A stretch of 64,000 nucleotides of DNA. Origin: Escherichia coli (lineage in GTDB: Bacteria > Pseudomonadota > Gammaproteobacteria > Enterobacterales > Enterobacteriaceae). This document shows, piece by piece, positions 1 to 24,902 of this stretch. The translations under genes and the position numbers were made by a program. The notes below the pieces were generated by a model. That model did not search any database and had not been told where the DNA came from. It saw nothing but the letters and a program-made list of their open reading frames with translations. Location: the NCBI RefSeq assembly GCF_003334405.1, contig NZ_QOWM01000005.1. One strand, written 5' to 3'. Each line of letters opens with the position of its first letter. Positions within the stretch are counted from its first letter, which is position 1.

Positions 1-1155
1 TAATTTTAAAATTAATTCACCGGCATCAGGCGAATGTATCAGCGTAGCTAAATGTGAACCACACTTGCAAGAATTGAAGTTGCTGTCCACTTTAAATTTA
101 AAGCGTCCGTTAGCAACCTCAGCATATCGGTAATTTTCATTCTCACTTTTCTCTTTTAGTTCGATCCTGAATTCATTATTGATATTTTCTAAGCAATATA
201 AGAATTTTTCTATCTCATATTCGTTAGTTTCAATCCAAAGAGCAATTGCAAAACCCTTTAAGGTAGATAAATGCTTATCCGATAAGATTTTAGACAGCTC
301 AATGAAAAAATCATGATGATCACAAGTCATAGCATCGAACTCGCCCTCAAGATAATCGGCATCCACGCCTAATTTTGCAGCATAAGCCTGAATGTTATTT
401 TTTATACACTCTATAACTTCTGCTTCTGGTGGTAAATTATTTTCTGAGGGTAGGAAAACATTTTTAATACAATCTGAATTTATTCCTCTGCTTTTAACTT
501 GATCGGCATCGTAAACAGATACTATGTTCAGGCCAGAGCTATCTTTATAATGCTCAGATACTTTTTGTATATTAGATTCACCTTGTAGATTATGTAAGTA
601 ACATGTAGAGTAAAGATGTGTGTTTTTTATTTTTAAGATATATTCAAGTACAAGTTTTGCAAAGTCATCCTCTATCAGGAAAATATTTTTCCTTTCAGGA
701 GCTAAACCCAGTGCATTGAAATATCTATAATTATATCCACAATTTGATATGGTATATTTTTTGCCTTTTTTAGCTAAGACTAATACTGAGTTTAAGCCTT
801 GAGGGCTGAGTATGTGTTCAGAGTGAGTAGCCATCAAAACATTTAATTTTTTAGTATCGATTGTGTAGGCTAAAAAATCCATGAAATTTTTCTGGCTTAC
901 CGGGCAAATAAAACTCTCTGGCTCTTCAATGAAGAGGATTGAATTTTTTTCCGTATAAATAAGTTTCCAGATTGCTATAAGTAACTTATGTTCTCCTTGC
1001 CCCATACTCTCTGACGTATAAACTATATTACTGTTAACCTCTTTAACCTCAAAGTATGGGAAAGTTAAATCATCAATAATTCCTTCTACCTCATTAACTT
1101 TTACATACTCATATTTCTTGCCTGTGATTTTCTGAACAAAAAAAAAGATTTTCAT
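1..1155 (-). CDS. Distal part of an OLD/ABC-type ATPase-nuclease (Walker B, H-loop, Toprim-like motifs); 3' end lies beyond the window start
   Basis: Minus-strand frame from ATG at 1155..1153 stays open to position 1 (absent from the ORF track, translated by hand: MKIFFFVQKITGKKYEYV...). Walker B-like ILFIEEPE (~917..940), H-loop-like LMATHSEH, then NIFLIEDDF (~663..690) and VYDAD (~500..517) resembling Toprim E and DxD motifs. Confidence 0.5.
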   Translation of the reverse strand, partial: MKIFFFVQKITGKKYEYVKVNEVEGIIDDLTFPYFEVKEVNSNIVYTSESMGQGEHKLLIAIWKLIYTEKNSILFIEEPESFICPVSQKNFMDFLAYTIDTKKLNVLMATHSEHILSPQGLNSVLVLAKKGKKYTISNCGYNYRYFNALGLAPERKNIFLIEDDFAKLVLEYILKIKNTHLYSTCYLHNLQGESNIQKVSEHYKDSSGLNIVSVYDADQVKSRGINSDCIKNVFLPSENNLPPEAEVIECIKNNIQAYAAKLGVDADYLEGEFDAMTCDHHDFFIELSKILSDKHLSTLKGFAIALWIETNEYEIEKFLYCLENINNEFRIELKEKSENENYRYAEVANGRFKFKVDSNFNSCKCGSHLATLIHSPDAGELILKL

Positions 1156-1603
1156 TTAGCAAATGATAAGAATTTGATGTATTGAACCATCCATTTTTGT
1201 TTGGCGATGTGTTTATTTCGTTTATGATTTTTAATGCCATTGATGAAGCATCAAAATATTCAACATTTCTTAGTCCATCACCCAAAGACGAAGTGAAAGT
1301 TTGTTTCTCTCCATTAATTATTATATCAATGGAGATATTATCAATATCAGAAGAGCTAAAAATCCCAACATTACATATATCTTTCGACAGTATACCATAG
1401 ATAAGTTTCAATAACGACGTTTTACCAATGCCATTTCTTCCACATATAGAGGTTAAAGCTGAGTTTATCGTAATATCAGCATCTTCAAAGAGTGGTACAT
1501 TCTTAATGGATAAACTACATATTTTAATATTAAACTTTTTCCTGTTTGCCACATGATTCCAATAATCAGCTAATTTTGCCATTTTAATTGTTTCTATTGA
1601 CAT
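1109..1603 (-). CDS. N-terminal fragment of the same P-loop ATPase (Walker A), in a different frame from the downstream part
   Basis: 164-aa ORF with Walker A ICGRNGIGKTSLL (~1418..1444); stop at 1111..1109 lies 47 nt inside the 1..1155 frame; the overlap contains an A9/T9 run at 1138..1146. Confidence 0.55.
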   Translation of the reverse strand: MSIETIKMAKLADYWNHVANRKKFNIKICSLSIKNVPLFEDADITINSALTSICGRNGIGKTSLLKLIYGILSKDICNVGIFSSSDIDNISIDIIINGEKQTFTSSLGDGLRNVEYFDASSMALKIINEINTSPNKNGWFNTSNSYHLLNENLFFCSENHRQEI

Positions 1604-2799
1604 GTAGTTACCCCCGCTAAAACAGAATCTGCATAATTGTTGACGACGCTTATCAGATTCTTTTCATTTTCATGATAAAGTGCTCTATGCGCAGTTTTTA
1701 GATTATTTTTTTTCATCGTATTGAACACATCTGCTTTACTGGGGTCACTCTTCAAGAAAAATAGAGATATTATAAAGTCTCTGATGAGTAAGGAAGTACC
1801 AGTCATTACTCTTGATACAGCCCTAAAATTAAATTCTTCCAATAACTCCTTTACTTCATCTTTATTTTCACAATAAAACAATCCATCCAACACTCCCTCT
1901 TCTCTGAAAACGAATCTACCACTTTCAAAGCGGTAAAAGAAATCACTAAGGCTATCGTCTAAATTATAATTCGATTTTAAAATGGTTGAAAAAAAATAAA
2001 GCCATGAAGTTAAAGTGGCTTTTGTTATATGAACCTTACTTTCTTCACTATCAATCTTTTTCTTTGCCTTACTTAATATTAAAATGGATTTTTTTACTAG
2101 TTCTATGATTGAATTATCAAAAGGCTCATCTTCACGAGCCCTGTCGTTTAATTGCTTTTCTGTATAAGAAGCAATCAATGAATCCTTCTCAAGCATGTAG
2201 CAAAGTTTAATGAAAAGATCATGGTATGCCATCCTTTGATTACTAAAGCCTAGAAAGTGCTTGTCAAGCCCACAATCCGACATATAATCTACGAGAGATT
2301 TTATCTGGTTTCTTAAATCGCCAACATAAGCATTTCTCTTTTCTGCTGAAGTTAATTTAAGAGATTCATTCAATCTGTTGAATAGTTCACCGGGCTCTCC
2401 CTGATTGTATTCAACAATCTCAAATACTCGAATGGCATACCGTTCAAATCTGTTTTTTATTCTTTGAGGTAATTTATCAAAAGTTAATCCATCTAATTCT
2501 TTGATATCATCATCAATAGGTTCAATTAATCCATTTATTTTGAATTTATTATACATGAAATCTCTTATGGCACTTAATCGTTGCTGTCCATCGAGAACTT
2601 CTTGAATATAGGAATCTTCATTTAAAATAACATGGACAGGTGGAACCTGCCACCCTCTTAGAATAGTATCGATTAAAAGTTTTTTCTTCGGAAGTTGCCA
2701 GACTTCCGCCCTCTGGAAATCGGGTTGGAGATCTAGACTTCCTTCATGAATCCTAGAAAATATAGTCCTCAAATCTGGATCTGTAGTATTTATTTTCAT
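1594..2799 (-). CDS. DUF262 (ParB/Srx-like, GmrS N-terminal type) domain protein; no DUF1524/HNH partner domain apparent
   Basis: 401-aa ORF with LQPDFQR...VW and LDGQQRLSAI motifs (~2580..2603) near the N-terminus; start overlaps the upstream gene stop (ATGA at 2796..2799); AT-rich. Confidence 0.7.
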   Translation of the reverse strand: MKINTTDPDLRTIFSRIHEGSLDLQPDFQRAEVWQLPKKKLLIDTILRGWQVPPVHVILNEDSYIQEVLDGQQRLSAIRDFMYNKFKINGLIEPIDDDIKELDGLTFDKLPQRIKNRFERYAIRVFEIVEYNQGEPGELFNRLNESLKLTSAEKRNAYVGDLRNQIKSLVDYMSDCGLDKHFLGFSNQRMAYHDLFIKLCYMLEKDSLIASYTEKQLNDRAREDEPFDNSIIELVKKSILILSKAKKKIDSEESKVHITKATLTSWLYFFSTILKSNYNLDDSLSDFFYRFESGRFVFREEGVLDGLFYCENKDEVKELLEEFNFRAVSRVMTGTSLLIRDFIISLFFLKSDPSKADVFNTMKKNNLKTAHRALYHENEKNLISVVNNYADSVLAGVTTCQ

Positions 2800-5700
2800 T
2801 TCATTAACTCCCAGAATGCTTTATCACGCATTTTCCTAACTTTTTTATTTCCATCTATATACAGGCTAAAATGCTTCTCAAGTTGTCGTATCTGGCCCAT
2901 TAAAGACTCCTGCTCACTTTTATCGTCAATGTTAAATACCGCCTTAATGTCCGAATTCCTAATCTCAGAAACTCGATGAATTACCCAAGTGAGAATATAA
3001 GAAGCATAATTATTCTCGCCTGTTTTAAAGTGAGTAATTTCTTGTGTTGATAGAATCGCCCCTACACCATATTCACGGCCTTCTTTAAGGATTTTACGCA
3101 AGCTGGCAAAATCCTGGCGCATAAAGTTATCGGCTTCATCAACCAGAATCATTTTGGTTAACTGGCGATAATCACCTCGCACCGTCGGTTTCCCACGCTT
3201 TTGCATCTGCGCATAAAAAAGATCCAGTGTCAGTGCAACTACCAGGTTTTGAATCTCTGATGGATAACCAGCGAGTTCGATAACTGTGACTCCATCAACC
3301 AGATCGTACAAACTGGTCATCTTCTCTGGATCCGTTTCAAAAATCTGGAAACCAGCCAGATTATAAAGTGCAGCATATAATGAATCTTCGTCGACCTTCT
3401 CTTGTGCCAGGTACTGCTGCCACACATCTTCAATAGTCGGTGCTACACGATTCCATGTTGATCGATCATGAGGCACTATTCCTGCTAAGTCATAGCACTC
3501 CATTATTAACGTAACCAGCTTCATGCGTTGTTTTACGCCAAGGTTATACGCTTTGCCCATCGTTTCAGCGAATGCCATGGCCGTATGCCTCGGTAACATG
3601 GGCATATCACCAAATAACGATAACGGATTGTAAGGTAACAACGATAGCTGATACCTCTTAGCTCCCGTAGCTTCAAGAAACGCATCATCCACATAGTCGG
3701 ATTTATAGTCGAAGATCAACAAGCCAATCGGTTTACCGTCAACGTTGTAGGACTGATTGCGCATCAGTTGCGTAACCAGCGATTTAGTAAACTGGGTTTT
3801 CCCGGTGCCCATTGTTCCAATAATGCCGGTATTAGTATTCATGAACTTAGCGGTGTTGGTTGGTTCCCAGTACAATGGATTCTGACGCACAGCATCATGA
3901 CCAAACAAGATCTGTAATGGTGTATTGCGGACATTACTGGGGGTTAGTGCCGATGCTTCAGGTTGTGGAAGCTCCAGCGCAGAAATGGGCGGCGGCTCAG
4001 TTGTTGTTGCTACCTGTACTGGGTGTGAAGAATTGACATCACACTCTGGTTTGAGCAGATATTTTTCCGGCACCCGATAGCGTTCAGCTAGTGGAGGTTG
4101 ATCACCTTGTGCTGCAATTAACGATGGAAGCAATGAATAGGGGATTTCGATCTGTAGAATATTCTCTGCCGTTTCTTTATAAGAGAGATCAAAACAGGTT
4201 CCGCTGTCTACATGAGCTACCACAAAGCCTTCTGCATAATCAGCAAGCTCACCTAACTGATAGTCGCCAGTGAGCCACCATTCACGTCGTTCCAGCAGAG
4301 GGGATAGCTTGTCGTTATCCAGTACACCATACAGACGCAACTTCTCTACCTGCATTAATACTTGGCGGATAAAAAGTGCCCGGTATAGTTGTGATGCTAG
4401 AGTTTTCGGCCCAAGAATATCTTGCTGTAAATAGCGTTTTAGCTCGCGGGCCTGCTGCCCCGCATGGTTGTAATCGGGGCGAGCTCCTGTTTTTACTTCA
4501 AGTGGTAACAGATACAGGTTGTTATCTTTGAAACCGACAAAGAGCACATCGTCAGAGATCGCTCCTTTCTGATAACCCTGTAAATGGCGCGATAAATCGC
4601 TTTCTTTCATTCTCAGCCCGACGTTGCCGGACACGCGGATCATCTCAGCTACTGACAGTGGAATCCAGCAAATATCTGACTGGAGCAGCATAGACTGTAC
4701 GAATTTGTATGCACCGATAATGCCGTGTTTTTCTTTGCGCTCCTTTTCATTTGAACGCAACATTTTTAACAGCCACTCACCGTTAAAGGCATTAAATTCA
4801 GCAAGTAGTTGCTGGCTATCAACGGTGGATTGTCCTGTTTGAAGGAGACGCAGGAACAACTCAACCTGTTTTGTGACAGTTACGGCGTCATAACCAGCAC
4901 AACTGGTGTACTGGTCAGAGTAATGAATTAGTACGACATCTTTTTGACTAGTAAAGAAATCGAGTGTGACCTTAGGGTCGATAATTGTGGTCCAGAGAGA
5001 GCTATCATAAGAGCGATTCAGCAGTTGCTTAAAGTTACCGCTCACAGCCAGACTAATTCCCTGACCGTGATACTGGCTGTTGCTCTGCCGTGCCGGTTGC
5101 CACAGACAGCCTAACAAGCGGGCGAGACGCAGGGCGCAAGACGATTCAGTATCGACATTACGCAGACCAAACGCGGTAAAGTAAGCATCGCCTTGTGTTT
5201 CAGCCCCTTCGCCTGCAATCAAGCCATGACATAAAACCCCGCTGGCAGCATCCTCAATGCGAATTTGGCGGCAATCAACCGGTGCGGTGTTGGTGAAAAA
5301 TGCGAGATGGGCGTAAGCCAGTTGATCGCTTTCCGGTGGCAGGATAAATTTGCTGAATGTTAAGCGACTGCGAAGCAGATCGATCAACATATCGGCTTCA
5401 GAACGCCACGCACCGCTGTTCAGACCAAGATCATTTTTAAGTTGTTCATAGCTGCCGCTTTCGGCAAAGCGGTCAAAGGCATTGGGTAGCAGACGTTCGT
5501 CATAGCAGTTTACGTGTATCGAAATTGCGTTATCTTTTTCCTGCTTAAAATAATCTACCAGTCCCAGGAATAGCTCTCTGGCTTCTCCCATATTAATAGC
5601 ATTAATAACCAGGGCATTATTTCCTGCACTCTGGAACAGCCGAGAATAGGCATCTGTAAATTCGTTTAGCTTGTCTTTCACCAGACGCTTAACATATTCG

Positions 5701-7880
5701 TGGCTCATCTGGCGCTGGGGAACAATATCTATCCAGAAGCGGTTTTCTACCATCGGTTGTAACTGTGCGTATTCATGTTCGCTATGATACACAAATGGCA
5801 TTAGGCCAGAGACGACCAGACGATCTAGAGTAATCTCTGGTAATGAAGCGAAGGAAGCTGATGTGGGGTATCCGGGCTCGGCGATAATAGTTTCAGCTAG
5901 CTGTAAATGATAAGCCATTACCAATGGGTGCAGAGGCGAGAGACGTTCATAATCGTCGCCGCGGCAAATCCCCAGATGTAACAGACGTTTTTCCTGGATG
6001 GTTAATGCTCTGCTTAGACTGATTTGCTGTAATGCCTGTTCAAAAGTAGCGATCATGTGACTGACTAATACACGATATTCTGCTGACCATGACACCAGAC
6101 TCGGCAGGGTATTTCGACGTTGATAGTAAACGAACAATTGGTGGTACGCATTATGGAGGTCGGGATAGCTCGCCAGAAGCTCATCCAGTGCAAACTCACT
6201 ACCATTACTGCCAGTGCTGAGCAGATTACGCTCGATCAGGGCGTACTCTTGCATAAGCAACTGCTGGCGAACACCAACCACATTATGTTCGATATTGTCC
6301 AGGATGACGCGACCTTTCAACTTGTTCCAGGTTGCATTCCCTTCTTCTTTAAAGAGTTTATTGAAACGACCCTGATCAAAAAGCAGAGGCAGTGTTAATC
6401 CTTCCTCTGCTCCTGGACCTTCGATGTTAAACAGTAAACGGGAGTCACCTGAAATCAAGGTAAATTTGATCAGCTCACTTTGATTCGCCAGCGTTTCAAA
6501 ATTAACGAGTGCATAATGGCGGCAATCAACATCATCACTTTCTTCATCAAGTAAACAGGTCTTGTCGCCGAACTCTGCAATACGTAACTCATTATCTTCC
6601 AGTTGCAGAGTTAATTGACCTTTACCAGGTTCAATACGATAACAATGCTGGATTTCATTAAGCCAGAATTGCCCTTGTTCAACTAACAGCAGGCGAAACT
6701 TGTACTCTTCTGCTGAGTTATTGCGGTTAATGATTTCGAGGCTAAAGAAGCAGGGCCGACCATCAAAAGGCACTGATGCCAGTATCTTAGAGTTTCTCCC
6801 CCCGAGCCGGCTAGTACGCCAGAATCGTTCTTTCTGTAACGGACGATGATGAGCAATTTTTACCTGATTGTCCTGAAGGTCGTTACCCTGGAAGATAAAC
6901 TCCAGCTCAACTTGTGACTGCCCCGGTAGAACCTGAACCAGGACACTGATATCTCGTTTACCTGCTTTACTGGTGCTTTTGGCTCTTTGCCAGACCTCAC
7001 CGTTTTCAGCAGTAATGTTTTCCAACACCAGTTTCTGTTCACTGTTTTGTGCTTTTTCATTCAGGTAGACGGAGAAATCAAGCTCACGCCAATCGTCATT
7101 GTCAACGAAATGCTCCTGAATGAATTTTGCACTAAATTCAGTTAGTACATTCTCCAGTTGCCCGCTGTAGCGTTCAACACTGTCCTCTATCTGGCGATAT
7201 AACTTTTGGTTTTCATTGAGCCGGGCGCGCAACTGCTTATCACTAAAATTCAGCAGGTTATTATCGTTGAATAACTTTAGCTCTGAGAAATCCAGATTGC
7301 CGTCGTCCAGCAGACGGTATAACGATGAAAATCCAAAAACCGTAGCGCCTTCATCCAATATTGTTGTCAACTGATCGCCCAGCAAACAGCGGGATACTTG
7401 AGAACGGGCGCTGTCCGTTGTGATTAACTTTTCGAGCTGGTGACGGAAGGTTTCTGGATGCCAGATAGCATCCGGTGCAGCGACATCTTTGGTACTATTG
7501 AGTAAGGTATCCAGCATGCTGTTGTGGATAATCAACAACGCTGTCTGGGCAAAAATGCCATTGCGGCCAGAAACCTGATCGCGTAAATGAGAAATATAGT
7601 TTTCTGTGAATGCAGGGGTAGTGGTGCCGTGCAGTACCGGAATAAGCTGGATATTATTACATTGGACGTAGGTAAGAAATTGCTCCGGTGCAATTTCTAG
7701 TTTATTTCCATTTGCTAAAGAGTCGAAAGCCTTCCAGAGCTTTAAGGCGTTATCCGGATCGGGAGATTTAAACTGGTAGCGCTCACCAGGCTGGATGATG
7801 CTGCTAACCCATTCAATGAAGGTTTCTGCCAGATAGGTTTCATACTGTTTTACGGACATATACGGCGTCTCCACTGTCAC
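2796..7880 (-). CDS. Large (1694 aa) island protein with C-terminal HerA/FtsK-type P-loop ATPase; possibly DptH/DndH-like
   Basis: Walker A GTMGTGKT (~3795..3818), Walker B ILVDEAD (~3129..3143), then REYGVGAILSTQ (~3028..3080) resembling the HerA/FtsK arginine-finger and TQ motif. Candidate PD-(D/E)xK motif VLFVGFKD...LPLEVK (~4491..4540). Start could instead be the Met at 7859. Confidence 0.65.
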   Translation of the reverse strand: MTVETPYMSVKQYETYLAETFIEWVSSIIQPGERYQFKSPDPDNALKLWKAFDSLANGNKLEIAPEQFLTYVQCNNIQLIPVLHGTTTPAFTENYISHLRDQVSGRNGIFAQTALLIIHNSMLDTLLNSTKDVAAPDAIWHPETFRHQLEKLITTDSARSQVSRCLLGDQLTTILDEGATVFGFSSLYRLLDDGNLDFSELKLFNDNNLLNFSDKQLRARLNENQKLYRQIEDSVERYSGQLENVLTEFSAKFIQEHFVDNDDWRELDFSVYLNEKAQNSEQKLVLENITAENGEVWQRAKSTSKAGKRDISVLVQVLPGQSQVELEFIFQGNDLQDNQVKIAHHRPLQKERFWRTSRLGGRNSKILASVPFDGRPCFFSLEIINRNNSAEEYKFRLLLVEQGQFWLNEIQHCYRIEPGKGQLTLQLEDNELRIAEFGDKTCLLDEESDDVDCRHYALVNFETLANQSELIKFTLISGDSRLLFNIEGPGAEEGLTLPLLFDQGRFNKLFKEEGNATWNKLKGRVILDNIEHNVVGVRQQLLMQEYALIERNLLSTGSNGSEFALDELLASYPDLHNAYHQLFVYYQRRNTLPSLVSWSAEYRVLVSHMIATFEQALQQISLSRALTIQEKRLLHLGICRGDDYERLSPLHPLVMAYHLQLAETIIAEPGYPTSASFASLPEITLDRLVVSGLMPFVYHSEHEYAQLQPMVENRFWIDIVPQRQMSHEYVKRLVKDKLNEFTDAYSRLFQSAGNNALVINAINMGEARELFLGLVDYFKQEKDNAISIHVNCYDERLLPNAFDRFAESGSYEQLKNDLGLNSGAWRSEADMLIDLLRSRLTFSKFILPPESDQLAYAHLAFFTNTAPVDCRQIRIEDAASGVLCHGLIAGEGAETQGDAYFTAFGLRNVDTESSCALRLARLLGCLWQPARQSNSQYHGQGISLAVSGNFKQLLNRSYDSSLWTTIIDPKVTLDFFTSQKDVVLIHYSDQYTSCAGYDAVTVTKQVELFLRLLQTGQSTVDSQQLLAEFNAFNGEWLLKMLRSNEKERKEKHGIIGAYKFVQSMLLQSDICWIPLSVAEMIRVSGNVGLRMKESDLSRHLQGYQKGAISDDVLFVGFKDNNLYLLPLEVKTGARPDYNHAGQQARELKRYLQQDILGPKTLASQLYRALFIRQVLMQVEKLRLYGVLDNDKLSPLLERREWWLTGDYQLGELADYAEGFVVAHVDSGTCFDLSYKETAENILQIEIPYSLLPSLIAAQGDQPPLAERYRVPEKYLLKPECDVNSSHPVQVATTTEPPPISALELPQPEASALTPSNVRNTPLQILFGHDAVRQNPLYWEPTNTAKFMNTNTGIIGTMGTGKTQFTKSLVTQLMRNQSYNVDGKPIGLLIFDYKSDYVDDAFLEATGAKRYQLSLLPYNPLSLFGDMPMLPRHTAMAFAETMGKAYNLGVKQRMKLVTLIMECYDLAGIVPHDRSTWNRVAPTIEDVWQQYLAQEKVDEDSLYAALYNLAGFQIFETDPEKMTSLYDLVDGVTVIELAGYPSEIQNLVVALTLDLFYAQMQKRGKPTVRGDYRQLTKMILVDEADNFMRQDFASLRKILKEGREYGVGAILSTQEITHFKTGENNYASYILTWVIHRVSEIRNSDIKAVFNIDDKSEQESLMGQIRQLEKHFSLYIDGNKKVRKMRDKAFWELMK

Positions 7881-9165
7881 TCATTCTCTCCACATTTCCC
7901 ATGCGTTCATAAAACGCAACCAGCATTTGTGTAGACTGGTTATCCAGATAAAATCCGCGTTGCTCAAAACCACGTAGCAGCTCATGCAGACGGAGTTTTT
8001 TGTTTTTACCCACGGTAAGGTTAGTTAGTAGCAGTAGTCGATCCTGGTTCAGTACCAGCACTTTCCCCGCTCGGCCACGAACCTGAATGAAGTCAGTGCA
8101 AATCTGGCTTTCCAGCTCGTTGATGTATTTGCGATTTACCGCTGCTCGCTCGGTTTTCTTACCCTGAAACTGTTCAACGGCAACAGATAACAGCTGTTTA
8201 AAGGCATCTTCCAGGTTTGTAGCACGATCGCGTTCAGGAAGGTCTCGCTCCTCCTTACTAATGAACTTCTGTATATAATTATTGAGTTCATTTAGTACTC
8301 GATTCGATGTATCTGAATAACCTAAGCAATCTTGATATACCTGCCAAAGAGGGCGCTTTTCCTCACCTTTTACTTGTAATACCTCTAATGCAGAGAGTAC
8401 GGGGAATAATTTTTCACTTTGGCGGGCAAACCACTTATAGCCGAAGAGCTTTATTTTATCTCGTTCGGAGCTAGCTTTTTCAGTATCGAGGATAAAGAAC
8501 AATGATTTACTCTGCGGCTCGCCGTCTTGCCAGTTGTCCAGATTGAGCGCCAGTTGTGCGCACCAACTAAAGGCATACAAACGTAGAGTATTGGTCAGCT
8601 CCTGCAAAAGATATTGTGGGTGCTCTGCCAGAAACGCCAAATCAGACTGAAAACACGTTACCAGATAGGGTAAATAAGGTTGTTCTTTTGCAAATGGCCC
8701 CTCACCCAGTCGGATTAATTTTTTATTGAGCTTATTCAGCATCTCTTTTTCAATAAAATTCAACTTATCTTGTATCGGGTTATTAAGGCTAAAATCTCTC
8801 ATCAAATTGGCAAACAGTGTTCCAAGGCGTTTGTCGGCAGTCGAGCCTGCACTTATCTTTTCACCATCAAACTGAGCGTGGAACAGCAAGAACAGCGGGG
8901 AGACACGAAAAATATCCTGACTGGAAAAATACATCCGTTCCAGCACGGACAAGAACGCAGGTTCATCGATCAATATTTGCAGATGAGTTTTACAATCCTC
9001 GCGAAACTGCTCGAGACTGTATGTATCGATTTTATACTTCACGGCATAGCTCAGTACTAAACCTGTGACGATTTGCCAGTCAATATTGTTATTCTTATTA
9101 CGTATTGGAAGGTAGCTATCCAGCTGGTTATTACTAACTTTTAAATTTGTTGCAATGGGATACAT
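7840..9165 (-). CDS. 441-aa island protein with no recognisable motif; possibly DptG/DndG-like
   Basis: ORF sits 4 nt downstream of the 549-aa gene and overlaps the 1694-aa gene start by 41 nt; AT-rich codon usage. Confidence 0.6.
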   Translation of the reverse strand: MYPIATNLKVSNNQLDSYLPIRNKNNNIDWQIVTGLVLSYAVKYKIDTYSLEQFREDCKTHLQILIDEPAFLSVLERMYFSSQDIFRVSPLFLLFHAQFDGEKISAGSTADKRLGTLFANLMRDFSLNNPIQDKLNFIEKEMLNKLNKKLIRLGEGPFAKEQPYLPYLVTCFQSDLAFLAEHPQYLLQELTNTLRLYAFSWCAQLALNLDNWQDGEPQSKSLFFILDTEKASSERDKIKLFGYKWFARQSEKLFPVLSALEVLQVKGEEKRPLWQVYQDCLGYSDTSNRVLNELNNYIQKFISKEERDLPERDRATNLEDAFKQLLSVAVEQFQGKKTERAAVNRKYINELESQICTDFIQVRGRAGKVLVLNQDRLLLLTNLTVGKNKKLRLHELLRGFEQRGFYLDNQSTQMLVAFYERMGNVERMSDSGDAVYVRKTV

Positions 9166-9169
9166 GATG

Positions 9170-10819
9170 TTATCCCTCCATGCCGCTGATAGTAATCATG
9201 TCATCGTCCGCTCTTGCACTATAGACCCGCTTTAGGCCATCATAAAACTTGATTTCGCTGCTGGATTTTGCCTTTTCTGCGATTAGTTCAACGATTTCGT
9301 CCAGTAAGACAATCGCACTTTTATCATACTTATTAGGGCGATAGCCATTATTTAGTTTGCTCAATAGCTCAAATAAATTAAGACCGATCCGAATCGGATC
9401 TAGCGGATCTTGTCCTACTTTTAAATAGATATCGAAACAAGTTGTATGGGCTGTATTTTTCTTGAGAATTGAATCCCAGTCCGGTTTCAGCGCAACAGGT
9501 GCTGTGATTTTAATCCCACCAAATTCGCCTAAAAAGAACTCTTCTTTTTGGGTACTCAGTTCAGGTGCTTTACGGTTTGCGTAACGCTGAATACCAGCGA
9601 TAAGCTCGAAAGAGTAAAAGCGGTTTAGTGTTCTTTTTTGTTCCGGATCTGCGGTATAGTTTTTATGCAGATGCCAAATCTCTGAATAACGCTCAAAGAG
9701 CGCTTCTTTAAAGAATACAGAGAACCTTTTGTGATAGTTATTCCCTAAAGATTCATGTTGTAGTAGCCAGAAAAGTCTAATTAATGAAGCTGCGTCACCA
9801 GGCTTAACACATTGACGATCAAACGTAAGATGTAATTTCGCAAGTGTACTCAGAAAATCATCCAGTTCGGGATCAACTAATCCAAGCTCATAGCGCAAAA
9901 TAAATTGATCAATCTCGTATGTATGCAATCTGGCAGGATCAAAATCAGAAACCTTTTTAATTAGATCATTCTCTGCACCATTAAACAGATTATCAAACAG
10001 GTACCCAGGCCCTGTCAGCAGGTGGTGTAAAAAATCCAATAAGGTTCTTGTGGTAACAAATTGATCTTTTATTAATCGGGCTTTAAATAGCTGTGTTATT
10101 AAAACATTCTGAACACCGGGCATGCACAGTAGTTTAAAGTTAGCAACGGTTTTTAAATCATGTCCTATTGATTCATCACGTTGATAAATTGTGTAAAACA
10201 GGTTTTTGTCGTCATTCCCCGTTAATTGATTCATTAATTTTTTGATAAAAGGGGAGTATTCCCGCTCTTCGTCAAACTCGAACTTTGGATAATGTTCGAA
10301 ATCAAAAAATATACAATTTTCGTTGCGGTAAGGACGCTGGCCTTCCTGTTGCGCTGACAAGAATGAGTCAATAGCAGCACGGATAGCCATATGGGACTCA
10401 GAACCTTCTCTGGCAAAATTGGCTAGCATCCCGGTGTTGATACCGATGAGGAGCGGGTATGATTGCGAATGATGATTTTCAAATAAATCATTCAGTGCAT
10501 CGATAGCCGATTGTTGAGGCGCAAAGCTATGTGTCGCATCCAGATGGAAACTAAACTTCTGTTGATATTGTGGATCTGACTTACAGCGGGTTAAAATTTC
10601 GGATTTCCCGTCTCCACTACTTCCGCATAGAAAAATGATCTCACCGGGAGTAGCTGTATCCAGATAACGCTGTAACTCTTCTTCAATCTCTTGTTTAACA
10701 AAGAGTTGTTCTTTTAGCTCATCGAACACATCCTTTTGCCGATGAGTTTCTGTGGTTACGGAAAACGAAGATGACTTCGCAAGTACACCTAACGCTTTAC
10801 GTAATGTGATCGCGCTCAT
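9170..10819 (-). CDS. 549-aa P-loop NTPase, first gene of the island operon; possibly DptF/DndF-like
   Basis: N-terminal P-loop FLCGSSGDGKSE (~10597..10630); first ORF downstream of the 209-bp gap after the integrase. Confidence 0.6.
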   Translation of the reverse strand: MSAITLRKALGVLAKSSSFSVTTETHRQKDVFDELKEQLFVKQEIEEELQRYLDTATPGEIIFLCGSSGDGKSEILTRCKSDPQYQQKFSFHLDATHSFAPQQSAIDALNDLFENHHSQSYPLLIGINTGMLANFAREGSESHMAIRAAIDSFLSAQQEGQRPYRNENCIFFDFEHYPKFEFDEEREYSPFIKKLMNQLTGNDDKNLFYTIYQRDESIGHDLKTVANFKLLCMPGVQNVLITQLFKARLIKDQFVTTRTLLDFLHHLLTGPGYLFDNLFNGAENDLIKKVSDFDPARLHTYEIDQFILRYELGLVDPELDDFLSTLAKLHLTFDRQCVKPGDAASLIRLFWLLQHESLGNNYHKRFSVFFKEALFERYSEIWHLHKNYTADPEQKRTLNRFYSFELIAGIQRYANRKAPELSTQKEEFFLGEFGGIKITAPVALKPDWDSILKKNTAHTTCFDIYLKVGQDPLDPIRIGLNLFELLSKLNNGYRPNKYDKSAIVLLDEIVELIAEKAKSSSEIKFYDGLKRVYSARADDDMITISGMEG

Positions 10820-11028
10820 AACTTCATGTTCTCTAAAGAAAGAATATCCTTATTCTATACAAGCTAACAATTGAGCACCATATGCCTTTTTCTCCAGGTA
10901 CGTTCAATACTCTGCAGAACTACCTGAAACCAATGCGCGGACAGCTACCATCATGAAATTGTTGCAACTTTGACCAACGAGCCTACTTAACAAAGTGTGA
11001 CGGTAGGCTCTATTTTTGTTACACAGCT
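10820..11028 (-). promoter_or_regulatory. Intergenic region between integrase 3' end and first operon gene; likely holds the operon promoter
   Basis: 209-bp non-coding AT-rich gap; I did not identify a convincing -35/-10 pair or a terminator hairpin. Confidence 0.3.
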
Positions 11029-12297
11029 TTAGCGCTTTAACGACGCAAAAATTTTGGCAAAATCAAACGGGCTAATCACTTTCTCGCGATTTACATCTAG
11101 AAAATCCGCCCACCACTGCAACATCAATCTTCTCTCATCCAAATGTTCTGCCTTATGGATATAAGCCGCTCGAACGGAGTTACGTTCCATATGGCTCATC
11201 TGACGCTCTACCGCATCCCTCGACCACAGCCCTGACTCAATCAGCGAGCTACATGCCATAGTCCTGAAACCATGCCCACAAACCTCTACCCTAGTGTCAT
11301 AACCCATAACGCGCAGCGCCTTGTTCACCGTGTTTTCACTCATCGGTTTACGCGGATCATGATCGCCAATGAAAACAAAATCGCGCTCGCCACTAAGCTT
11401 GTGAACCTGTTTGAGGATTGCCAGAGCCTGATGAGACAATGGCACCAGATGAGGTGTGCGCATTTTAGAACCACGTTGAGAGTGCTTCACTCCTTCGATA
11501 GCTTCTCGTTCTGCCGGTATCGTCCACATTGCCGTATCGAAATCGATCTCAGACCAGCGGGCAAAGCGCAATTCACTGGAACGAATGAAGATTAATAAGG
11601 TTAGCTCAACAGCCAGGCGGGTCAAAGGGCGTCCCGTGTAACCGTCAATTCGGTGGAGCAGTTCAGGTAGACGTTTCAGCTCAAGTGCAGGGCGATGGAC
11701 ACGGTTACTGGAAGCAACTGCGCCAGCCATCTCTTGAGCCGGGTTGTAATCAATCAGCCCACTTTGTACCGCATAGCGCATGATTGCTGTGGTTCTCTGC
11801 TGAAGGCGAGAAGCAACTTCAAAGCGGCCTGTCGCTTCCACGATTTTTATGGGTGCAAGCAGGTCACGAGTTTTTAGCTCTTCGATACTTCGTCTGCCAA
11901 TTGCCGAGAACAAATTGTCCTCTAAGCTCTTCAATACCCTTCGGCTGTGTTCTTCGGACCATTTCTTATTAGTAGCGTGCCATTCTCTGGCAACTGACTC
12001 GAAGGTAATAGCCTCTTTCGCCTGTTCTTCTTTCACAGCACGTTTATGCTCGCGAGGGTCGATTCCAGCAGCAACAAGTCTCCTAGCCTCTTCTCTTTTT
12101 TGACGGGCATCAGCCAGTGAAGTTTCAGGGTAAACACCGAAAGCCATCAGGTGTTGCTTGCCACCGAAGCGAAAGCGGAACCGCCAGTATTTTGAGCCGT
12201 TGGGATGAATCAGCAAAAACATGCCATCCCCATCGACTAGGGTGTACTCCTTTTCCTGCGGTTTCGCAGAACGTACTTTAGTATCTGTCAGAGCCAT
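11029..12297 (-). CDS. intB: P4-type tyrosine integrase (IntB-like), apparently intact
   Basis: 422-aa ORF next to a tRNA 3' end; the C-terminal region (around ...EVCGHGFRTMACSSLIESGLWSRDAVERQMSHMERNSVRAAYIHKAEH) has tyrosine-recombinase-like R/H..R/Y spacing; position matches P4-like tRNA-associated integrases. Confidence 0.85.
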   Translation of the reverse strand: MALTDTKVRSAKPQEKEYTLVDGDGMFLLIHPNGSKYWRFRFRFGGKQHLMAFGVYPETSLADARQKREEARRLVAAGIDPREHKRAVKEEQAKEAITFESVAREWHATNKKWSEEHSRRVLKSLEDNLFSAIGRRSIEELKTRDLLAPIKIVEATGRFEVASRLQQRTTAIMRYAVQSGLIDYNPAQEMAGAVASSNRVHRPALELKRLPELLHRIDGYTGRPLTRLAVELTLLIFIRSSELRFARWSEIDFDTAMWTIPAEREAIEGVKHSQRGSKMRTPHLVPLSHQALAILKQVHKLSGERDFVFIGDHDPRKPMSENTVNKALRVMGYDTRVEVCGHGFRTMACSSLIESGLWSRDAVERQMSHMERNSVRAAYIHKAEHLDERRLMLQWWADFLDVNREKVISPFDFAKIFASLKR

Positions 12298-12496
12298 AAA
12301 AGTTCTCCTTCCATGTGCCGCTGTGAGTATACAACCATTATCGAACCAGCATATATACTCGGTTCTATACTCACAAGCGACTTGATGTGGGTTGACTCAG
12401 ATTGACTTCTGTTGAAAGGAAAATCGCGGAAGGCCTTGTATGACGGGGATTTCAGGCATAAAAAAAGACCTCAGTTGAGGTCCATTTACATGCTTT

Positions 12497-12581
12497 TGGT
12501 GCCGAAGGCCGGACTCGAACCGGCACGTATTTCTACGGTTGATTTTGAATCAACTGCGTCTACCGATTTCGCCACTTCGGC
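12497..12581 (-). tRNA. leuX: tRNA-Leu (leuX)
   Basis: Plus strand reads TGGTGCCGAAGGCCGGACTCGAACCGGCACG...GCCACTTCGGC, the reverse complement of an 85-nt tRNA-Leu with CCA end at the low coordinate facing the integrase. Confidence 0.9.
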
Positions 12582-12776
12582 ACTGAAGAGGTATGCGGAA
12601 AACGTTGTGAATTATACCTGTCACGCACCACCATGCAAGCGCCAGCTTGCTCGCACCTCGCTAAGTGCTGAAATTTTCAGCATTGCATACCGCGATGTGT
12701 AACCTTTGTCACACTCCAGGCACCCCGCCCTGCCATGCTCTACACTTCCCAGACAACACCAGAGAAGGACCAAAAA

Positions 12777-13796
12777 ATGTCGATGATAAAAAGCTATGCC
12801 GCAAAAGAAGCGGGCGGCGAACTGGAAGTTTATGAGTACGATCCCGGTGAGCTGAAGCCACAAGATATTGAAGTGCAGGTGGATTACTGCGGGATCTGCC
12901 ATTCCGATCTGTCGATGATCGATAACGAATGGGGATTTTCACAGTATCCGCTGGTTGCCGGGCATGAGGTGATTGGGCGCGTGGTGGCACTCGGGAGCGC
13001 CGCGCAGGATAAAGGTTTGCAGGTCGGTCAGCGTGTCGGGATTGGCTGGACGGCGCGTAGCTGTGGTCACTGCGACGCCTGTATTAGCGGTAATCAGATC
13101 AACTGCGAGCAAGGTGCGGTGCCGACGATTATGAATCGCGGTGGCTTTGCCGAGAAGTTGCGTGCGGACTGGCAATGGGTGATTCCACTGCCAGAAAATA
13201 TTGATATCGAGTCCGCCGGGCCGCTGTTGTGCGGCGGTATCACGGTCTTTAAACCACTATTGATGCACCATATCACTGCTACCAGCCGCGTTGGGGTAAT
13301 TGGTATTGGCGGGCTGGGGCATATCGCTATAAAACTTCTGCACGCAATGGGATGCGAGGTGACAGCCTTTAGTTCAAATCCGGCGAAAGAGCAGGAAGTA
13401 CTGGCGATGGGTGCCGATAAAGTGGTGAATAGCCGCGATCCGCAGGCACTGAAAACTCTGGCGGGGCAGTTTGATCTCATTATCAATACTGTGAACGTCA
13501 GCCTCGACTGGCAGCCTTATTTTGAGGCGCTGACGTATGGCGGTAATTTCCATACGGTCGGTGCGGTTCTCACGCCGCTGTCTGTTCCGGCCTTTACGTT
13601 AATTGCGGGCGATCGCAGTGTCTCTGGCTCTGCTACTGGCACGCCTTATGAGTTGCGTAAGCTGATGCGTTTTGCCGCCCGCAGCAAGGTTGCGCCGACT
13701 ACCGAATTGTTCCCGATGTCGAAAATTAACGACGCCATCCAGCATGTGCGCGACGGTAAGGCGCGTTACCGCGTGGTGTTGAAAGCCGATTTTTGA
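12777..13796 (+). CDS. ahr: NADPH-dependent aldehyde reductase (zinc alcohol dehydrogenase family)
   Basis: [19 protein letters not shown]... with CGICHSDL zinc motif; start taken at internal Met of the 353-aa ORF. Confidence 0.9.
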
Positions 13797-13799
13797 AAA

Positions 13800-14363
13800 T
13801 CATTCGCAGCGCTGATCTGAGGCGCTGCCCTCTTTCGCACATATTCTGTTTTGTCGTATCGCCAGCACAGCCTGCCGACATTGTTCAGTGACATTGGCAA
13901 TATCATGGTTGATATCAATGCGCACAATATCCTGTTCATCTTCTTGTGGACGCTCCAGTGCCTCAAACTGACTTTTTAGTAACGCTACCGGCATAAAATG
14001 CCCAGCCCGACGCTGCATTCGCGCGAGAATAGTTTCATAGTCGCCATCTAACCAGAGGAAATGAACATGGGGGCTACCCTTGCGTAAAATATCACGATAC
14101 TGTTTTTTTAATGATGAACAGACAATAAATCCTGTTTCATTCTTTTTATAAAGACTGTATGAAGCATCATTTAAGCGTTCCAGCCAGGGAAGTCGATCTT
14201 CATCAGATAATGGAATACCCTGCGACATTTTATCTATATTTTTGGCTGGATGAAGATCGTCACCATCAATAAATTTAGCAGATAATAACGCGGCAACCTT
14301 GCTACCAATTAATGTTTTACCACTCCCTGAAACGCCCATCAAAATAAAGCTTTCACCCGCCAT
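13800..14363 (-). CDS. idnK: D-gluconate kinase, thermosensitive
   Basis: 187-aa ORF with P-loop GVSGSGKT; sits in the idn gene cluster. Confidence 0.9.
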   Translation of the reverse strand: MAGESFILMGVSGSGKTLIGSKVAALLSAKFIDGDDLHPAKNIDKMSQGIPLSDEDRLPWLERLNDASYSLYKKNETGFIVCSSLKKQYRDILRKGSPHVHFLWLDGDYETILARMQRRAGHFMPVALLKSQFEALERPQEDEQDIVRIDINHDIANVTEQCRQAVLAIRQNRICAKEGSASDQRCE

Positions 14364-14579
14364 TTAAAATCTCCTGAATCATCTTACCTGCTGCGATACT
14401 ACGCCTGGTGGCATAATAATTTCACGTTTTTTTATTTCTGCTGATAAGAATTACAAGGCACATCACGTTATGCGTAACATAGTAATGTAACAATTTTCTG
14501 ACGTGATCTTCATCACAAATAATAACAATTAAAACCGCTTAAATGCTTCCGAGGTGTCTACCTGACCAGTGAGGAATTT
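14364..14579. promoter_or_regulatory. Divergent idnK / idnDOTR promoter region
   Basis: 216-bp AT-rich gap between divergently oriented idnK and idnD; assigned by position only. Confidence 0.4.
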
Positions 14580-15611
14580 ATGCAAGTGAAAACACAGTCC
14601 TGCGTTGTTGCGGGCAAGAAAACTGTTGCCGTTACCGAGCAGACGATAGATTGGAATAATAATGGAACATTAGTACAAATAACCCGAGGTGGAATTTGCG
14701 GTTCCGATTTACATTATTATCAGGAAGGAAAAGTAGGTAATTTCATGATAAAGGCACCGATGGTGTTAGGTCATGAAGTTATCGGTAAAGTTATTCATAG
14801 CGACTCATCAGAATTACATGAAGGGCAAACGGTAGCCATTAATCCGTCTAAACCGTGCGGTCACTGCAAATACTGCATTGAACATAACGAGAATCAGTGT
14901 ACAGATATGCGTTTTTTTGGCAGTGCCATGTATTTCCCTCATGTTGATGGTGGTTTTACCCGTTATAAAATGGTCGAAACGTCGCAATGTGTCCCTTATC
15001 CGGCCAAAGCTGACGAAAAGGTTATGGCTTTTGCCGAACCTTTAGCCGTCGCGATTCATGCCGCACATCAGGCCGGCGAGTTACAGGGCAAGCGAGTATT
15101 TATTTCTGGTGTTGGGCCCATTGGCTGCCTGATTGTCAGTGCTGTGAAAACACTGGGGGCCGCGGAAATTGTCTGTGCCGATGTGAGTCCCCGTTCCCTT
15201 TCGCTGGGTAAAGAGATGGGGGCGGATGTGCTCGTAAACCCACAAAACGACGACATGGATCACTGGAAAGCGGAAAAAGGCTATTTCGATGTCAGCTTTG
15301 AAGTGTCCGGTCATCCTTCATCAGTGAATACCTGTCTGGAGGTCACTCGTGCACGCGGCGTAATGGTGCAGGTAGGTATGGGAGGCGCGATGGCAGAATT
15401 CCCAATGATGACATTGATTGGTAAGGAGATTTCACTCAAAGGCTCTTTCCGTTTTACCAGCGAATTTAATACCGCAGTGTCATGGCTGGCGAATGGCGTT
15501 ATCAATCCACTGCCTTTACTGAGTGCTGAATATCCCTTCACTGACCTGGAAGAGGCGCTACGTTTCGCCGGTGATAAAACCCAGGCAGCAAAAGTCCAGC
15601 TTGTTTTCTAA
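14580..15611 (+). CDS. idnD: L-idonate 5-dehydrogenase
   Basis: 343-aa zinc-type dehydrogenase (GICGSDLHYY) at the idn locus. Confidence 0.9.
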   Translation: MQVKTQSCVVAGKKTVAVTEQTIDWNNNGTLVQITRGGICGSDLHYYQEGKVGNFMIKAPMVLGHEVIGKVIHSDSSELHEGQTVAINPSKPCGHCKYCIEHNENQCTDMRFFGSAMYFPHVDGGFTRYKMVETSQCVPYPAKADEKVMAFAEPLAVAIHAAHQAGELQGKRVFISGVGPIGCLIVSAVKTLGAAEIVCADVSPRSLSLGKEMGADVLVNPQNDDMDHWKAEKGYFDVSFEVSGHPSSVNTCLEVTRARGVMVQVGMGGAMAEFPMMTLIGKEISLKGSFRFTSEFNTAVSWLANGVINPLPLLSAEYPFTDLEEALRFAGDKTQAAKVQLVF

Positions 15612-15634
15612 GAGATAAATAAAGGAATAATACA

Positions 15635-16399
15635 ATGAACGATCTATTTTCACTGGCAGGAAAAAATATCTTGATTACCGGTTCAGCACAGGGCATTGGC
15701 TTTTTACTGGCAACCGGCCTGGGTAAATATGGCGCACAAATAATTATTAATGATATTACTGCCGAACGCGCAGAACTTGCTGTAGAAAAACTCCACCAGG
15801 AGGGTATTCAGGCCGTTGCCGCACCTTTTAATGTTACTCATAAACATGAAATTGATGCCGCCGTTGAACATATCGAAAAGGACATCGGCCCCATTGATGT
15901 GCTGGTGAATAACGCCGGTATCCAGCGCCGTCATCCTTTTACTGAGTTCCCTGAACAAGAGTGGAATGATGTGATCGCAGTAAACCAGACCGCCGTGTTC
16001 CTGGTATCGCAAGCAGTAACTCGTCACATGGTTGAACGCAAGGCAGGTAAAGTTATTAATATTTGCTCGATGCAAAGCGAACTGGGACGTGACACCATCA
16101 CCCCTTATGCCGCATCGAAAGGGGCGGTAAAAATGCTCACCCGCGGCATGTGCGTCGAGCTGGCGCGCCACAATATTCAGGTCAACGGTATTGCGCCGGG
16201 CTATTTCAAAACAGAAATGACTAAAGCACTGGTTGAGGACGAAGCCTTCACCGCCTGGTTGTGCAAACGGACCCCCGCCGCACGCTGGGGAGATCCGCAG
16301 GAACTGATTGGTGCTGCGGTGTTCCTTTCTTCAAAAGCCTCTGATTTCGTAAACGGCCACCTGTTGTTTGTTGATGGCGGCATGTTAGTGGCTGTTTAA
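15635..16399 (+). CDS. idnO: 5-keto-D-gluconate 5-reductase (SDR family)
   Basis: 254-aa ORF with TGSAQGIG Rossmann motif at the idn locus. Confidence 0.9.
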   Translation: MNDLFSLAGKNILITGSAQGIGFLLATGLGKYGAQIIINDITAERAELAVEKLHQEGIQAVAAPFNVTHKHEIDAAVEHIEKDIGPIDVLVNNAGIQRRHPFTEFPEQEWNDVIAVNQTAVFLVSQAVTRHMVERKAGKVINICSMQSELGRDTITPYAASKGAVKMLTRGMCVELARHNIQVNGIAPGYFKTEMTKALVEDEAFTAWLCKRTPAARWGDPQELIGAAVFLSSKASDFVNGHLLFVDGGMLVAV

Positions 16400-16463
16400 C
16401 ACCTACTACCCTACGTGCAGCGCGAAAGCGCTGCTTTTCTGGCACTAATAAGAGATAAAGACT

Positions 16464-17783: not shown

Positions 17784-17849
17784 AAGAATAAAATATTGTG
17801 ATGTAGTTTCGGGGGAAGATTGAAGATTCCCCCGACGTTGGGAGAAGTT

Positions 17850-18848: not shown

Positions 18849-18925
18849 GTTATTTTCTCTTCATTACACGTATTCTCTTTGCCGGACGTTGCCTATACTC
18901 CAGGCAGGAAACTGGAGGATATCTC

Positions 18926-20428: not shown

Positions 20429-20544
20429 GCCAGGTGCGATTTGTCTTTGCCTGATGCGACGCTGGCGCGCCTTATCATGCCCACACCACTGCAATATATT
20501 GAATTTTCATGATTTTTCAGGCATGAACGAAGCACACTTTGCTA

Positions 20545-20580
20545 ACAATAATAAAGGGAGCTTTCGCTCCCTTTATTCGT
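20545..20580. terminator. Bidirectional rho-independent terminator between yjgR and lptG
   Basis: Hairpin AAAGGGAGC-TTT-CGCTCCCTTT (~20553..20575) flanked by A-rich and T-rich runs. Confidence 0.5.
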
Positions 20581-20588
20581 TCATCAGG

Positions 20589-22771: not shown

Positions 22772-23034
22772 TTTAAATACGCCCGTAAAAACTCGTCTTT
22801 TGCAGGATTTTAGCTTGTTTCATGGCTTAAACGTCATTTATTCTCTTGAGTCGTCGAAATCGTCGCTAAGATAATTATACTCAACGGATTCACCTCTCAG
22901 ATTTTGTTCTGACGTGCCAATGCCGTAATAACGTTAAGATTAACACGAAGTCATCGCAACAGCGGACATGAGTTACGAAAGCTTGCAATTCTATCTGTAG
23001 CCACCGCCGTTGTCTTTAAGATTCAGGAGCGTAG

Positions 23035-24549
<1,515 letters not shown>

Positions 24550-24552
24550 TTG

Positions 24553-24872
<320 letters not shown>

Positions 24873-24902
24873 TATTTAAATCCACCACAAGAAGCCCCAT
24901 AT

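Follow-up and report, generated by a model that had tools for sequence, protein, structure and literature searches.

A conserved gene pair of a DUF262 protein and an OLD-family ATPase-Toprim protein in an Escherichia coli dnd island

This work concerns two adjacent genes at the beginning of a 64,000-nucleotide stretch of Escherichia coli DNA (contig NZ_QOWM01000005.1 of assembly GCF_003334405.1), which at its full length is referred to as the window. One gene encodes a DUF262 protein, a ParB-like nucleoside triphosphatase (NTPase), and the other an OLD-like ABC ATPase fused to a predicted Toprim nuclease domain. An earlier sequence-only reading had pointed to the pair either as a distinct two-gene module stacked onto an upstream trio of genes, identified here as dptFGH, or as the sensor and effector parts of a single five-gene system. 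The features of the pair are given below, with the basis of each in brackets.

1..1603, minus strand: gene of the OLD-like ABC ATPase-Toprim protein, frameshifted (three-frame translations, intact allele of strain B7A, Pfam, PADLOC, AlphaFold2 model with Foldseek)
1..177, minus strand: C-terminal beta-rich tail of the ATPase, approximately residues 476-536 (DSSP of the AlphaFold2 model: five strands, predicted local distance difference test score, pLDDT, of about 90)
403..705, minus strand: predicted Toprim nuclease domain, approximately residues 300-400 (invariant acidic residues, HEC-04 TOPRIM match)
733..1531, minus strand: ABC ATPase head, approximately residues 25-290 (invariant columns in alignments, translation)
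1138..1146: A9 homopolymer (T9 on the coding strand), which frameshifts the ATPase after approximately residue 153 (alignments)
1594..1603, minus strand: 10-nucleotide overlap of the DUF262 stop (TAG) with the ATPase start (ATG), ATGTCAATAG (sequence read)
1594..2799, minus strand: gene of the DUF262 (ParB-like NTPase) protein, NsnA-like, 401 amino acids (open reading frame, translation)
2323..2769, minus strand: DUF262/GmrSD_N domain, residues 11-159 (Pfam boundaries, translation)
2796..2799, minus strand: ATGA overlap of the dptH stop with the DUF262 start (sequence read)

The assignment of the upstream gene of the pair to DUF262 was correct. The Pfam model GmrSD_N (PF03235) matches residues 11-159 of its product with an E value of 5e-20 and is the sole Pfam match. 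Within this domain lie a PDFQR motif (residues 26-30) and the DGQQR NTPase motif (residues 70-74, window 2578-2592), both of which are invariant in 37 family members. In the AlphaFold2 model (pLDDT 90), a ParB-like alpha/beta N-terminal domain is followed by an all-helical half (residues 135-400), and the best PADLOC profile, NsnA of the Menshen system (E 3e-33), covers residues 2-279 and reaches into this helical half. A DUF1524 HNH (His-Me) domain was found neither by Pfam nor in the model, the C-terminal half of which is all-helical.

The call of an OLD/ABC ATPase-Toprim protein was borne out as well. Pfam AAA_15 matches the second protein in two pieces, with AAA_21 and AAA_23 matching too, and the ABC motifs are in place: Walker A GRNGIGKT (with K61), a signature-like MGQGE (residues 200-204), the Walker B/D-loop EEPE (226-229) and the H-loop THS (259-261). 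In alignments of 17 and 34 sequences, G55-K61, MGxGE 200-204, EEPE 226-229 and H260 are invariant. The same is true of the four catalytic-type acidic residues of the putative Toprim domain, E311/D312 (window 667-672) and the two aspartates of D365-A-D367 (window 502-510). No Pfam Toprim model matches the protein; among PADLOC profiles, the ATPase-TOPRIM fusion HEC-04 matches it best (E 6e-28, approximately 96 bits), and the C-terminal 244 amino acids taken alone match only the TOPRIM part of this profile (positions 312-487, E 1.2e-11). Further PADLOC matches are ATPase-Toprim_I-B, NsnB (E 1.9e-14) and, in part, AriA, AriAB and GajA. The AlphaFold2 model (pLDDT 89.2) finds as its best Foldseek match, over its full length, the Thermus scotoductus OLD nuclease TsOLD (6P74; E 3.6e-11, 564 columns), followed by retron PtuA and GajA, and 6P74 is also the best Protein Data Bank match by sequence. 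The Foldseek TM-scores are low (approximately 0.25), which we attribute to a differing arrangement of domains. By its ABC ATPase motifs, its C-terminal Toprim glutamate and DxD and its modelled OLD-like fold, the protein belongs to the OLD family and is predicted to act as a nuclease.

These two genes are found together far beyond this locus. The inspection of gene neighbourhoods that the sequence-only reading had suggested, for DUF262 genes beside OLD/AAA_15-Toprim homologues, was positive: for all eight ATPase homologues followed (identities from 72% to 25%), the gene immediately before is a GmrSD_N gene, which overlaps the ATPase gene or lies a few nucleotides from it. Starting from the DUF262 side, the ATPase partner is present in Salmonella, Bacillus inaquosorum, Hymenobacter, Shewanella violacea and three viral contigs, as well as on 10 of 11 metagenome contigs with a close relative. 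In 24 of the 25 distinct loci with a strong DUF262 match, the next gene downstream encodes an ATPase of this family, the sole exception being a degraded DUF262 gene without ATPase (metagenome locus L130). A further metagenome locus (L127), inside a dnd island, has a frameshifted DUF262 gene and retains the ATPase. No third gene is conserved at the inspected loci, where what comes after the ATPase is either a terminator and dndE or genes that are unrelated or on the opposite strand. The neighbour-joining trees of the DUF262 protein and the ATPase are congruent, showing that the two proteins co-evolve. Hosts comprise Enterobacterales, Vibrionaceae, Pseudomonas, Bacillus, Hymenobacter and P2-like prophages.

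As to the size of the family, an exhaustive profile search returned 905 ATPase clusters at 50% identity (profile E<=1e-30); the 58 clusters returned by a word-index search reflect, as judged from the exhaustive one, the limited sensitivity of that method. Among the 150 ATPase matches listed, nearly all are full-length, mostly of approximately 470-490 amino acids. On the DUF262 side, 1978 clusters match at E<=1e-5. For both proteins, tblastn gave no match in the PLSDB plasmids or the INPHARED phages, and as far as these two collections show, the family appears chromosomal, residing in islands, integrative conjugative elements (ICEs) and prophages. The pairing thus holds in nearly every locus. 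P2-like prophages, Bacillus, Hymenobacter and a Salmonella ICE have the pair with no dptFGH upstream, which supports the first of the two earlier proposals, that of a distinct two-gene module. We consider it very probable that the pair is a conserved OLD/Menshen-like nuclease module of two genes with a role in defence.

In the window, the pair forms the 3′ end of the dptFGH operon, and both this position and the 10-nucleotide overlap of the two genes (1594-1603), noted earlier, are borne out by the sequence. The ATPase ATG, at window 1603, is preceded by a Shine-Dalgarno-like GGGGG run; a second in-frame ATG, encoding M8 at window 1582, is the position where most homologues start, and if M8 is the true start, the genes would lie 11 nucleotides apart without overlap. 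At its other end the gene runs off the window, its stop lying 9 nucleotides beyond position 1, so that the last three codons and the stop are outside; the intact B7A allele (WP_000021429.1) encodes 536 amino acids. Just outside the window, a bidirectional hairpin terminator stands between the ATPase stop and dndE. The ATGA by which the DUF262 gene begins within the dptH stop is a stop/start overlap of the kind associated with translational coupling. The neighbouring features are the following.

2796-7880, minus strand: dptH (NCBIfam TIGR03237 above the curated cut-off, PADLOC DndH, B7A RefSeq annotation)
7840-9165, minus strand: dptG (NCBIfam TIGR03236 above the curated cut-off, PADLOC DndG, B7A RefSeq annotation)
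9170-10819, minus strand: dptF (NCBIfam TIGR03238 above the curated cut-off, PADLOC DndF, B7A RefSeq annotation)
11029-12297, minus strand: P4-type tyrosine integrase (open reading frame, B7A annotation)
12497-12581, minus strand: tRNA-Leu(CAA) (ARAGORN); with the integrase it marks the island boundary, 11029..12581

The dptFGH genes (2796..10819, minus strand), the phosphorothioation-dependent restriction trio, lie 5′ of the pair in the same operon. By megablast, the same DNA is present in 13 complete E. coli genomes, including B7A, at 99.8-100% identity. The B7A annotation gives the order tRNA-Leu, P4-type integrase, dptF, dptG, dptH, 'DUF262 domain-containing protein', 'ATP-dependent nuclease' and the convergent dndE-D-C-B. 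The window thus holds the B7A-type dnd island at tRNA-Leu, with dndBCDE just beyond position 1. The GC content steps sharply within it, from 31-35% over the pair (1-3000) to 43-47% over dptFGH (3000-10800).

Comparison of E. coli islands shows the interval between dptH and dndE to be a variable cargo slot. The pair is present in 13 of 46 E. coli genomes with dptH and absent from the other 33, and the three pair-less islands that we examined, whose dptH is 96% or 77% identical, all carry other cargo at the same site. In FORC_041 and Ecol_316, the slot holds a 179-amino-acid protein and 'DNA phosphorothioation-associated DGQHR protein 1' (TIGR04172), and in SE11 an Mrr-type type IV enzyme and a hypothetical protein. 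In all three E. coli slot variants, the gene that opens the cargo overlaps the stop of dptH. The same slot is occupied in Salmonella Cerro 87 by dndI, which is transcribed together with dndFGH and encodes a DUF262-DUF1524 HNH nuclease; it is by means of the DUF262 domain that DndI senses GpsAAC/GpsTTC, and IscS-DndBCDE suffices as its partner in defence, without DndFGH (PMC11662687). The B7A pair thus appears to be an alternative cargo of a site to which a ParB-like NTPase and a nuclease have been recruited repeatedly. This context, namely dndBCDE beyond the window start, the variable slot and dndI at the same site in Cerro 87, was missed by the sequence-only reading. The slot may also serve as a handle for finding more phosphorothioate-linked effectors.

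The same comparison bears on the second of the earlier proposals, in which the pair would be integral subunits of a five-protein DptFGH machine, an extra sensor and nuclease working only in complex. The single operon, the overlapping stops and starts and the one shared terminator are consistent with it, as is the order dptFGH-DUF262-ATPase, which is kept, with the pair between dptH and dndE, in Yersinia, Pectobacterium, Aliivibrio and Vibrio vulnificus. Against this stand the 33 E. coli dptH genomes that do without the pair, with other cargo in those examined, and the occurrence of the pair beside dndBCDE without dptFGH and at loci without any dnd genes. Moreover, DndFGH is described, in a source that cites the B7A structural work, as a 2:2:1 assembly of F, G and H that is active alone. 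Of the two earlier proposals, we therefore retain the stacked module and regard membership in a five-gene system as highly improbable.

The other locations of the pair bear on its tie to phosphorothioation. The Pseudomonas pair is found past dndB, at the opposite end of the dnd genes, in Shewanella a gene for a phosphorothioated-DNA-binding (SBD-HNH) endonuclease stands between dptH and the pair, and in a Salmonella ICE the pair abuts dndBCDE with no dptFGH within 8 kb. The assignment of this last locus to an ICE follows from its flanks: the Salmonella enterica contigs with the pair and dndBCDE carry TraG/TraU conjugation genes and an ArdC-like gene in their flanks. One Yersinia-like contig has further GmrSD_N and GmrSD_C genes, a second set split into three open reading frames (18946-21575), at a distance of a few kb past dndB, and thus another DUF262 nuclease within the one island. 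In both the DUF262 and the ATPase tree, the 11 dnd-adjacent pairs that were placed, admittedly a small sample, all fall into one clade, to which the copy in the window belongs and which has been seen solely beside dndBCDE. Their ATPases are longer (517-564 amino acids in dnd-linked loci versus 434-490 elsewhere), the difference being the beta-rich C-terminal tail, which is confined to the dnd-linked clade, is weakly conserved in sequence and has no identified relative. Across genera, the pair has diverged in step with the dnd and dpt genes. Other cargo of the slot is dnd-linked too, namely the TIGR04172 DGQHR protein and the phosphorothioated-DNA-binding endonuclease. Because the dnd-linked pairs are monophyletic, because their adjacency to dnd genes survives rearrangement, because one locus does without dptFGH and because DndI sets a precedent, a functional coupling of the pair to phosphorothioation is plausible, although we would place it somewhat below even odds.

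Several observations weigh against such a coupling. In most hosts the pair has a GC content of 29-33% versus 43-49% for the dnd and dpt genes (less markedly in Aliivibrio, 29-30% versus 33-39%), which suggests a separate origin. Relatives at 37-45% identity are found in P2-like prophages, Hymenobacter and a Bacillus defence island, and the flanks available for them contain no dnd genes, so that the family as a whole needs no phosphorothioation. The phenylalanine of PDFQR, at the equivalent of the phosphorothioate-sensing tyrosine of DndI and SspE, is invariant in dnd-linked and dnd-free members alike, and no dnd-specific adaptation is visible at the motif. The cargo of the SE11 slot is of the ordinary Mrr type. 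Finally, cassette exchange through conserved flanks could confine a clade to the dnd niche without any functional tie. Short-form pairs (ATPase of approximately 480 amino acids) were observed in Moellerella and Aliivibrio fischeri beside the integrase of P2-like prophages, with Cox, Ogr, GpA and portal genes in the vicinity; the presence of old and other defence genes in P2-type hotspots is already known.

From these observations arises a different account, in which the pair is an autonomous defence system embedded in the dnd island that would detect phage DNA or a phage protein in the manner of Menshen, PARIS or HEC-04, with no part for phosphorothioation, and would be confined to dnd islands by co-inheritance and by exchange of cassettes by way of the dptH and dndE flanks, which are conserved. 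The dnd-free relatives beside a prophage integrase, in Bacillus and in Hymenobacter, the variability of the slot even among E. coli islands with 96% identical dptH, the AT-richness of the pair relative to the rest of the island and the unchanged PDFQR are all in keeping with it, and defence genes embedded in unrelated multi-gene systems are documented, HEC-04 having been found in this way (bioRxiv 10.1101/2024.01.29.577857). Nevertheless, both trees unite the dnd-linked copies in a single clade, which is marked by a C-terminal tail of its own, adjacency to dndBCDE persists where the flanks have changed (Pseudomonas, the Salmonella ICE and Shewanella), and the slot is enriched for proteins tied to phosphorothioates (DndI, DGQHR_dnd_1 and SBD-HNH). 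We therefore hold the embedded, phosphorothioate-independent system to be possible but rather doubtful.

The interpretation that we favour, with a probability of approximately 0.6, is that the pair is a self-contained two-gene nuclease module, a relative of Menshen with a fused effector, the copy of the dnd clade being possibly specialised to phosphorothioate. By analogy with NsnA, SspE and DndI, the DUF262 NTPase with its helical, putatively DNA-binding half would read the state of the DNA, and the OLD-family ATPase would supply its own, apparently catalytically intact, Toprim nuclease. As in OLD, PARIS and HEC-04, activation of this nuclease would depend on ATP, with the DUF262 protein as its probable gate. 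Once active, the Toprim nuclease may cut nucleic acid, either DNA, as GajA does, or tRNA, as P2 Old and PARIS AriB do; recent accounts name tRNA as a target of both of the latter. For the copy studied here, the most likely specialisation would be that host phosphorothioate marks serve as the self-signal, in which case the pair may give the Dnd system a second restriction arm, in reserve or in parallel. We put forward more tentatively, as less probable than not, the specific proposal that the dnd-clade pair is a further, hitherto undescribed kind of phosphorothioate-dependent restriction effector beside DndFGH, SspE/DndI, SspFGH and PbeABCD, in which the DUF262 protein licenses or restrains the OLD nuclease, that the family is the simplest Menshen, and that B7A phenotypes are partly due to the pair. 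If this proposal is true, a family of approximately 900 clusters would be Menshen at its simplest, its effector carried on the ATPase itself.

Whether the module functions in the source strain depends on the homopolymer in the ATPase gene. The frameshift noted earlier is indeed present in the sequence: at 1138-1146 the window has A9, where B7A has A8 and strain EC416 has A7, and the match length at the tract is consistent with A8 in 12 of the 13 complete E. coli genomes carrying the pair DNA (B7A and 11 others). The ATPase in the window is hence disabled by a one-base homopolymer expansion, if the extra base is real. Programmed phase variation at the A8 tract could be ruled out, since the tract is not conserved in orthologues; this points to slippage or sequencing error in a very AT-rich gene rather than to a programmed switch. 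One may suppose that the module is dead in the source strain, its ATPase a pseudogene through homopolymer slippage, or else that the extra A arose in sequencing and the strain has an intact gene. The former gains from the varying tract length among near-identical strains, from a second one-base loss in EC416 (A8 to A7 inside the DUF262 gene, window 1989-1996), which splits that gene, from the degraded copies at metagenome loci L127 and L130, and from the density of homopolymers, of which runs of at least 7 bases number five in the 2.8 kb of the pair versus none in the 8 kb of dptFGH. On the other hand, the window is otherwise 99.9-100% identical to intact alleles, errors in homopolymer length are typical of long-read assemblies, and no programmed switch would account for the change. 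A decayed module is in our view unlikely.

The location of the pair gives it practical weight. E. coli B7A is a reference strain for phosphorothioation, and the pair sits between its dndBCDE and dptFGH. The published B7A plasmid of the 'whole dndBCDEFGH', used to establish the anti-phage spectrum of Dnd, was built from fragments of 8,286 and 8,321 bp (PMC10470545). In B7A, the distance from the start of dndB to the end of dptF is 15,969 bp with the pair (9850-25818), and the genes without the pair amount to approximately 13.1 kb. From the fragment sizes and this span, the plasmid almost certainly carried the pair, and the reported phage-resistance data for DndB7A may include a contribution from these two genes, which the publication does not mention. 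The precedent of DndI, which in the same slot works with DndBCDE and without DndFGH, makes dependence of the pair on phosphorothioate a concrete hypothesis.

To place the pair among known systems, it is important to ask how each of them combines sensor, ATPase and nuclease. The DGQQR-bearing N-terminal DUF262 NTPase domain is shared with GmrSD, SspE and DndI. In contrast to DndI and SspE, the pair has no DUF1524 HNH domain, its predicted nuclease being a Toprim on the separate ATPase polypeptide, and it shows no detectable similarity to them at the sequence level, with phenylalanine in place of the sensing tyrosine. An OLD-type ABC ATPase with a Toprim nuclease is shared with PARIS and Gabija; fused AriAB forms exist, and GajA is among the top fold matches. 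Unlike PARIS, the pair has no DUF4435 AriB by Pfam, the AriA and AriAB profiles match only segments of the ATPase, and the partner is a DUF262 protein, and unlike Gabija, no UvrD-like GajB helicase gene stands beside the pair at any locus. Three further candidates were set aside by their partners: PD-T4-2, of which PD-T4-2_A matches with an E value of 5.5e-18 but the partner here is an ATPase-Toprim instead of a HEPN protein (HEPN according to PMC10952713); GrwAB, which combines a DUF262-DUF1524 protein with a second DUF262 protein; and WonAB, which combines an ATPase with a PD-(D/E)xK nuclease. PADLOC-DB 2.0.0 contains no dedicated model for the pair, its best scores being approximately 96-114 bits.

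With class 1 OLD proteins (P2 Old, TsOLD) and HEC-04, the ATPase shares an N-terminal ABC ATPase fused to a C-terminal Toprim bearing the glutamate and DxD. Those are single genes, whereas this ATPase has a DUF262 partner at every locus with intact genes. HEC-04, in which the Walker A motif and E319/D375/D377 are essential, defends as a single gene (bioRxiv 10.1101/2024.01.29.577857); the score of the present ATPase against it, only approximately 96 bits, indicates a related family rather than a member of HEC-04.

The closest relation is to Menshen. The sequence-only reading had named no pairing of an OLD-type ATPase with a DUF262 protein, and the premise that none exists proved wrong: Menshen joins a DUF262 protein to an AAA_15 OLD-type ABC ATPase (PMC12065111; PMC10952713), and the DUF262 protein of the pair matches its NsnA, so the pairing is already known in principle. 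In that system, NsnA consists of DUF262 and a helical DNA-binding domain, NsnB of an OLD-type ABC ATPase with a DUF3696 helix, and NsnC of an inactive PIN-like domain (inPIN) with a variable nuclease, in some cases of Toprim fold (PMC12065111). Consistent with this, the pair has an NsnA-type DUF262 protein with a helical half directly upstream of an AAA_15 OLD-type ATPase, and the logic that we propose, from sensor to ATPase to nuclease, would be the same. Unlike Menshen, it comprises two genes instead of three, with no NsnC (inPIN and effector) at any inspected locus, and only the ATPase core (residues 149-267) matches NsnB, with no DUF3696 found by Pfam, so that the ATPase does not qualify as an NsnB. 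Where NsnB ends in a short DUF3696 helix, the present ATPase, of 470-560 amino acids, carries its own Toprim with intact E and DxD. In the published Menshen survey, a third gene almost always follows NsnB, and fusions are not mentioned (PMC12065111). We found no paper that names the pair or treats it in B7A; a prior description in Krishnan et al. 2020 (ABC ATPase classification), which may treat ParB-OLD operons, is possible. The two-gene form with a fused, intact Toprim and the clade dedicated to dnd islands thus appear undescribed. OLD nucleases have been sorted by partner into four classes (solitary, UvrD/Gabija, retron and PARIS), none of them with DUF262, and a fifth, widespread context in which a DUF262 protein is the obligate partner would enlarge this scheme and tie OLD nucleases directly to Menshen.

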